A program made the translations under genes and the position numbers. The notes beneath the pieces are model-generated. The model was given only the letters and a program-made list of their open reading frames with translations, searched no databases and had not been told where the DNA came from. A DNA stretch of 64,000 bases, taken from NCBI RefSeq assembly GCF_046105845.1, contig NZ_CP151004.1. One strand, given 5' to 3'. Positions 40,090 through 40,645 of this stretch are shown here, in pieces (the stretch's first letter is position 1; every line of letters begins with the position of its first letter). The stretch is from Escherichia coli. Its GTDB lineage: Bacteria > Pseudomonadota > Gammaproteobacteria > Enterobacterales > Enterobacteriaceae.

Positions 40090-40504
40090 AAGAGAACATC
40101 CCCTGAGAGTTTAATTTTCGTCAAGATGCGTGGCGGACAATCCCCTGCCAGCGAAACGTTATCTTCCTGCTCCAGGTTTGCGACAAATTGGTGCGTCGCA
40201 AAAAAGCAAACGTTTAGCTCCGCGCATACAAAACGGGTGGTAAAAAAAGCAAACGATTATCCGGCGATCATAGCGGCTTTTTCAACCGAAGTTTGCTGCT
40301 TTTTTCTCTTTTATTGTCTTGACGATGAAAAACCAGGCAATTGATGCGCAAACGTTATCGTCGATGCGCAAGATTGCAGCGTTATCGAGCCGCATACCGT
40401 TCAGGATTGCGATAAAAAATCGTCTGAGATGACAAAAATATTGCGGCTAAAAAGTGTACTTTTACACTGGCGAAGAAACGCCGGTGACATACAATTAAAG
40501 CGTC

Positions 40505-40645
40505 AACACCAACCGGAACCTCCACCACGTGCTCGAATGAGGTGTGTTGACGTCGGGGGAAACCCTCCTGTGTACCAGCGGGATAGAGAGAAAGACAAAG
40601 ACCGGAAAACAAACTAAAGCGCCCTTGTGGCGCTTTAGTTTTGTT
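40505..40645 (+). ncRNA. ryjA: Candidate RyjA small RNA, convergent with and overlapping the 3' end of soxR
   Basis: From memory a ~140-nt sRNA lies between soxR and ghxP; the 3' end is set by the hairpin-plus-T tract at 40614..40645; the 5' end is a guess. Confidence 0.3.
40614..40645 (+). terminator. Hairpin terminator overlapping the soxR stop codon
   Basis: ctaaagcgcc-cttgt-ggcgctttag followed by TTTTGTT on the plus strand and preceded by an A-rich tract. Confidence 0.65.

Follow-up and report, generated by a model that had tools for sequence, protein, structure and literature searches.

The ryjA (sraL) small RNA gene of Escherichia coli and the terminator hairpin that holds the stop codon of the convergent soxR gene

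The window, that is, the whole 64,000-nucleotide stretch of Escherichia coli DNA that was analysed, carries between the purine transporter gene ghxP and the gene soxR a small RNA (sRNA) gene known as ryjA or sraL. This gene is read toward soxR and is preceded by a putative promoter of its own. The two convergent genes meet at a palindromic hairpin, in whose downstream (3') arm the soxR TAA stop codon is found (minus strand 40637..40635; TTA on the plus strand), ryjA overlapping the last 8 nt of soxR. The coordinates of the features are collected in Table 1.

Table 1. Features of the ryjA-soxR region, in coordinates of the window
Feature	Position	Strand	Description	Basis
ryjA promoter (putative)	40467..40498	+	-35-like CTGGCG 40467-40472, 17-nt spacer, -10 TACAAT 40490-40495, TAA discriminator 40496-40498	
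ryjA / sraL sRNA gene	40502..40642	+	141 nt	Rfam RF01408 match and mapping of K-12 ryjA (b4459)
5' domain of the RNA	40502..40551	+	closing stem nt 1-8 / 43-50, inner stem ACCUC/GAGGU nt 17-21 / 38-42	fold
Candidate tig-pairing segment	40526..40535	+	nt 25-34, CAC GUGCUCG	predicted complementarity to the tig leader
Central domain of the RNA	40552..40596	+	GUC/GAC closing stem, hairpins GGG-GAAAC-CCC and UCCUGU/GCGGGA	Rfam structure, fold
Single-stranded A/G-rich linker	40581..40610	+	GGAUAGAGAGAAAGACAAAGACCGGAAAAC, ~30 nt	alignment, folds
Shared terminator hairpin (predicted)	40611..40641	both	13-bp stem, 5-nt loop, 10-bp core 40614-40638	terminator scan, folds, repeat search
soxR coding sequence	40635..41099	-	154 aa	ORF list; RefSeq annotation of near-identical genomes and K-12

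A search of positions 39900-41300 against Rfam with cmscan rendered one match above threshold, sraL (RF01408), which coincides with the plus-strand gene of Table 1, scores 153.3 bits (gathering score, 39; E = 2.6e-36) and extends over model positions 1-142 of 142. A second match, on the minus strand at 40611-40646, scored 23.7 bits, under the gathering score, and was rejected as the palindromic hairpin read backwards and nothing else. In the genome of K-12 MG1655 (NC_000913.3) the ncRNA gene ryjA (b4459) is annotated at 4277926..4278066 on the minus strand and soxR at 4277469..4277933 on the plus strand, with an 8-nt overlap between them. An earlier reading of the window from its letters, referred to below as the sequence-only reading, had pointed to an sRNA, RyjA, convergent to soxR at this spot, and had proposed an alignment to the K-12 ryjA coordinates as a check. 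This pairwise alignment placed K-12 ryjA exactly at 40502..40642 on the plus strand, with 140 of 141 nt identical, and the K-12 annotation thus has the gene on the strand and in the place that had been predicted, rather than on the other strand or elsewhere. The range estimated at that time, 40500-40645, was 2 nt off at the 5' end and 3 nt off at the 3' end. The sole change in the RNA with respect to K-12 is at nucleotide 1, which is G here and A in K-12, both being present among the sampled genera. The transcript ends given for this strain are deduced from homology, the 3' end of ryjA being that of the K-12 annotation.

The sequence 40090-40700 was matched in 5,420 of the 5,426 complete E. 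coli genomes, with identities of up to 99.8%. The automatic annotation of NCBI (PGAP) of the closest genomes lists soxR alone under this stretch, and the sRNA is therefore easily missed in strains other than K-12; the practical point is that ryjA goes unannotated outside K-12-type records. The ryjA region was seen interrupted in a few E. coli genomes, for instance in H11 (NZ_CP151026.1), where a 201-nt ryjA query is spread in two pieces over 379 nt of the record, and in H18 (NZ_CM132948.1), where 77% of the query is covered, with a second place elsewhere. These cases suggest that in rare strains the sRNA gene, or DNA close to it, has received an insertion.

The minimum-free-energy fold of the window RNA (-47.7 kcal/mol, z = -2.8) reproduces the Rfam consensus structure, so that the elements of sraL are all found, namely a 5' domain with a long-range closing stem, a central domain of two hairpins and a terminator hairpin. 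The RNAalifold consensus of 33 distinct orthologues contains 34 pairs, eight of which show compensatory double changes. Most of these belong to two elements, namely four pairs of the outer 5' stem (AU to GC in 5 sequences, GC to AU in 12, CG to UA in 3 and, at another pair, AU to GC in 5) and three pairs of the second central hairpin. The sequence of the terminator stem is almost invariant across the aligned orthologues. The A/G-rich linker is likewise almost invariant in the 33 aligned orthologues and is unpaired in all folds, and we infer for it a role as an Hfq contact or as a seed.

Upstream of the RNA, the TACAAT box ends 6 nt before the +1 position (40502) and the TAA triplet lies next to it. 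These promoter blocks, as CTGGCR, TAnAnT and TAA, are kept, with constant spacing, in front of the RNA across the 53 species loci of the survey described below. Features of this type have been described as sigma-S-type (PMC3753932), and the dependence of Salmonella SraL on RpoS has been documented with an rpoS mutant, a promoter-lacZ fusion and a >100-fold enrichment of RpoS in ChIP (PMC3753932); RyjA of K-12 is listed among the RpoS-regulated sRNAs induced in stationary phase (PMC12266141). In the window, ryjA would accordingly be assigned a sigma-S-type promoter, its sigma-S dependence being taken from that literature (PMC3753932, PMC12266141). A scan with the sigma-70 consensus flagged no plus-strand promoter for ryjA, which is expected for a sigma-S promoter with a weak -35 element, yet lends no positive support. 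An A/T-rich block at 40432-40456 (ACAAAAATATTGCGGCTAAAAAG), about 45-70 nt 5' of the ryjA start, is kept in most genera as GAAAAAATTTCGGCTAAAAA and may serve the sRNA promoter as an UP element or as the site of a regulator. It was also observed that the promoter/start region 40493-40502 (AATTAAAGCG) resembles the 5' arm of the terminator at 40612-40621 (AACTAAAGCG) in 9 of 10 positions, and is therefore 85% complementary to the 3' arm; this resemblance is probably due to chance.

The repeat search identified the hairpin between ryjA and soxR as a perfect inverted repeat, 13 of 13 positions being complementary between 40611-40623 (AAACTAAAGCGCC) and 40629-40641 (GGCGCTTTAGTTT), with a loop of 5 nt. 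The hairpin that the sequence-only reading had placed at 40614..40638, spanning the soxR stop codon, is the 10-bp core of this repeat (arms CTAAAGCGCC/GGCGCTTTAG), and the A-rich and T-rich sides that it had described correspond to flanks of GGAAAAC(AAAC) on the 5' side and TTTTGTTCATCTT on the 3' side, with an A-tract on one and a T-tract on the other. When the segment 40600-40660 was folded, the plus strand gave -23.8 kcal/mol (z = -5.05) and the minus strand -30.4 kcal/mol (z = -6.70), with 0 of 200 shuffles as good in either case; the stability of the hairpin is far above chance expectation. Past the 10-bp core the plus strand continues with UUUUGUU and the minus strand with UUUGUUUUCC, so that one GC-rich hairpin is found between the convergent units with a U-rich tract 3' of it on both strands. 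In the terminator scan this stem came up on the plus strand only, since a stem taken at its maximal 13 bp leaves no more than 4 T in 8 in the minus-strand tail. Since the minus strand reads the palindromic hairpin and then the tail given above, the soxR transcript most likely ends there too. The earlier proposal that the hairpin can terminate both transcripts is supported at the sequence level by these tails, and the hairpin would most likely be a bidirectional intrinsic terminator for ryjA and soxR, the soxR 3' end being a predicted one for this strain. Bidirectional terminators between convergent E. coli genes have been reported as a general occurrence (Ju et al. 2019, as cited in bioRxiv 10.1101/2022.10.23.513370); neither soxR nor ryjA occurs in that preprint on bidirectional terminators. 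The U-tail of ryjA is short here (UUUU followed by G) in comparison with the 6-7 U of many other genera, and may mean weaker binding of Hfq.

A collection of species-representative genomes was scanned with two conserved sraL motifs, which rendered 53 loci, essentially all of them from Enterobacteriaceae, including Escherichia, Citrobacter, Salmonella, Enterobacter, Klebsiella, Raoultella, Leclercia, Lelliottia, Cedecea, Atlantibacter, Trabulsiella and others; the diversity of this sample is understated because the loci were picked by exact motifs. A tblastn search with the SoxR protein of the window located soxR, convergent and immediately downstream of sraL, in 52 of the 53 loci. GhxP was found upstream of sraL wherever the flank was long enough, in two classes of distance: about 413-455 nt from ghxP to the sRNA in Escherichia, Trabulsiella and Citrobacter (C. 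werkmanii, C. youngae and one of two C. amalonaticus assemblies), and about 1,090-1,330 nt in the remaining loci. In Salmonella a glutathione S-transferase (GST) gene is located upstream of sraL (PMC3753932). The bimodal distance indicates the presence or absence of one extra gene, and the larger class fits this Salmonella gene (PMC3753932); in the window, where ghxP lies 413 nt upstream of ryjA, the extra gene is absent.

Some further observations were made on these loci and on the ghxP-ryjA intergenic region. Two loci carry unexpected labels: in a metagenome-assembled genome (MAG) labelled 'Bacillota bacterium' (L026) the ryjA RNA and its 80-nt upstream flank are identical to those of K-12 and GhxP is 99.8% identical to that of the window, and an assembly labelled 'Chryseobacterium sp. 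18061' (L034) contains an enterobacterial ghxP-sraL-soxR-soxS locus. Both are probably cases of contamination or mislabelling in public assemblies. In the window, positions 40150-40362, upstream of ghxP, contain four GC(A/G)AACG(T/A)T cores like the half-sites of PurR operators, at 40152, 40206, 40249 and 40348. Two of the four are within 17-nt direct repeats, AAAAAAGCAAACG(T/A)TTA, with a spacing of 43 nt, and three of the four exact core matches cluster in a 150-nt part of the ghxP-ryjA intergenic region. PurR-box counts over the entire window were not above chance.

The position of the soxR stop codon with respect to the sRNA terminator was compared in the 52 loci with soxR, and three classes were distinguished. 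In the first (10 of 52 loci) the stop is the TTA inside the CTTTAG of the stem and SoxR was aligned over 154 residues; this class comprises Escherichia coli, E. albertii, E. whittamii, an Escherichia sp., a contig identical to K-12, Citrobacter amalonaticus (two loci), Citrobacter sp. FP75, RIT691 and L046. In the second (22 of 52) the stop meets the U-tract, at -2 to +1 nt, and in most loci SoxR was aligned over no more than its first 151-152 residues, and in the third (20 of 52) the stop lies 7-509 nt past the U-tract, in some cases with other palindromes in between. The SoxR protein of the window has 154 residues and the C-terminus ...EDEQN. In many other genera the SoxR alignments are shorter, and the residues by which the window protein exceeds them are encoded where its frame enters the sRNA terminator stem (40635-40643). 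The stem keeps its sequence also in loci whose soxR does not extend into it, and soxR coding therefore does not explain the conservation of the stem. These results indicate that the convergent sraL-soxR pair is conserved and that the soxR stop inside the shared terminator stem is a lineage-specific form of it, which is a small new point. As a separate observation, five loci (L015, L018, L024, L049 and L051) have 95-509 nt inserted between the sraL terminator and the soxR stop, and in Enterobacter quasihormaechei and Lelliottia the inserted DNA includes long, GC-rich REP-type palindromes (GCCGGGTGGCGC...GCCTAC...GTAGGCCGG).

SraL/RyjA, an sRNA of about 140 nt, was discovered in 2001 (PMC3753932). 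Northern blot and ChIP data for the RNA are given in PMC3753932, which also refers to literature on its detection in E. coli and Salmonella. The RNA accumulates in stationary phase and its levels fall in a Salmonella hfq mutant (PMC3753932). In Salmonella, SraL lowers the expression of trigger factor (tig) through base pairs formed immediately 5' of the tig ribosome-binding site, an interaction validated by compensatory mutations and gel shifts (PMC3753932), and it has been reported to pair with the rho leader and to prevent Rho-dependent premature termination (Silva et al. 2019, as summarised in PMC6582626). In E. coli, full-length RyjA is polyadenylated and strongly accumulates in a pcnB mutant, its decay being dependent on PAP I (PMC5389530). 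The window RNA would likewise act in trans through limited base pairing, its presumed functions on tig and rho being those studied in Salmonella, not in E. coli. Hfq-dependent stability would be carried over from Salmonella as well (PMC3753932), and the terminator with a short U-tail and the conserved A/G-rich linker are visible here.

With respect to tig, nt 25-34 of the RNA can pair with positions -29..-19 of K-12 tig (CGAGCAC-U-GUG) in 7 + 3 bp, just upstream of the Shine-Dalgarno sequence, which is the geometry of the Salmonella SraL-tig duplex, described as '7 and 3 bp' (PMC3753932). Pairing predictions were controlled with mononucleotide shuffles of the sRNA, and the RyjA-tig duplex was no better than shuffled sRNA, 26 of 150 shuffles scoring as well and the 7-mer matches having P = 0.41; the duplex is therefore consistent with the published geometry and does not constitute independent evidence. 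Among the predicted duplexes of RyjA with the rho leader, none was above the shuffled sRNA controls in windowed and seed analyses, and RNAduplex applied to the whole sRNA with the tig or rho leader returned hybrids along the entire molecules, which carry no meaning and did not surpass shuffled sequences. A literature search for RyjA together with RIL-seq found nothing.

Taken together, we consider it nearly certain that the plus-strand gene of Table 1 is the gene of the trans-acting RNA RyjA/SraL, with a putative sigma-S-type promoter and a predicted end at the hairpin common with soxR. A different reading of the same arrangement is that RyjA acts mainly in cis on soxR, so that termination or stability of the soxR mRNA, or collision of RNA polymerases, would be coupled to sigma-S-driven transcription of ryjA. 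This would build on convergent transcription and on a complementary 3' overlap of about 35 nt: there are 8 nt of coding overlap, the predicted transcripts overlap over the entire hairpin, soxR lies next to the RNA gene and converges on it in 52 of 53 species loci, and collision-assisted bidirectional termination has been described at convergent E. coli pairs (bioRxiv 10.1101/2022.10.23.513370). However, the overlap is limited to a self-complementary hairpin, which each RNA is able to fold alone, and the third class of stop positions indicates that tight overlap is not conserved. Moreover, the literature found on ryjA with soxR describes no cis effect on soxR, and the trans targets have been validated by compensatory mutations (PMC3753932), so that a mainly cis-acting RyjA is unlikely.

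A narrower form of coupling can be conceived for Escherichia and a few relatives, in which the soxR frame runs two codons longer into the stem, taking its stop from CUAAAG. Three processes might interfere there, namely the termination of soxR translation, the formation of the soxR mRNA 3' end and the sigma-S-driven transcription of ryjA, either by the ribosome melting the terminator or by head-on collision of polymerases. We regard such a three-way interference as improbable; if true, the level of the superoxide sensor would be tied to stationary-phase signalling in a lineage-specific way.

That the transcript could be the mRNA of a small protein, or a dual-function RNA, was considered because of an ATG at 40538 that opens a frame of 26 codons (MRCVDVGGNPPVYQRDREKDKDRKTN) ending at a TAA at 40616-40618, this frame being present in the window as the C-terminal part of a 62-aa ORF at 40429..40617. 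The ATG, which sits within the conserved stem of the 5' domain, is not preceded by a Shine-Dalgarno sequence, reads CTG, ACG or CCG across many of the other genera, and is followed by indels that are not multiples of three and break the frame. Translation from this ATG was rejected on account of its lack of conservation, the missing Shine-Dalgarno sequence and the frame-breaking indels, and a coding role is very improbable. Finally, the idea that the hairpin is the intrinsic terminator of soxR alone and the plus-strand sequence upstream of it an untranscribed spacer, with no sRNA, takes up the ordinary look of a gene-end hairpin with a very stable minus-strand fold, but it is barely tenable, given that the 110 nt upstream of the hairpin fit the sraL covariance model end to end and are conserved across genera far above their flanks with compensatory changes in two stems, that a conserved promoter lies at a fixed distance, and that the RNA is annotated in K-12 and has Northern blot and ChIP data (PMC3753932).

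The ryjA/sraL gene, with the terminator that it would share with soxR, is already known and annotated, and the novelty is limited to the comparison of stop-codon positions; with ryjA in Rfam and in the K-12 annotation, and two characterised targets, the locus carries little weight as a discovery. Compared with RyjA/SraL of E. coli K-12, the window has the same locus order, ghxP - ryjA - soxR - soxS, the same strand relation and 141-nt length, and the same terminator and 8-nt overlap with soxR. SraL of Salmonella enterica (L048) is an orthologue that shares the fold and the promoter blocks and likewise faces a convergent soxR, and its tig-pairing segment, GUGCUC, is largely kept. In Salmonella, however, the glutathione S-transferase gene stands upstream of sraL, while the window has none and ghxP comes directly at the distance given above, and the Salmonella soxR stop lies 31 nt past the U-tract of the sRNA, whereas in the window it is within the stem. 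As in the known bidirectional terminators of convergent E. coli genes, one palindromic hairpin with an A-tract and a U-tract would provide a U-rich tail on each strand, the ryjA-soxR hairpin being judged here from its sequence; unlike the bidirectional terminators of Ju et al. 2019, one of the partners is an sRNA, and the hairpin holds the stop codon of the other gene.
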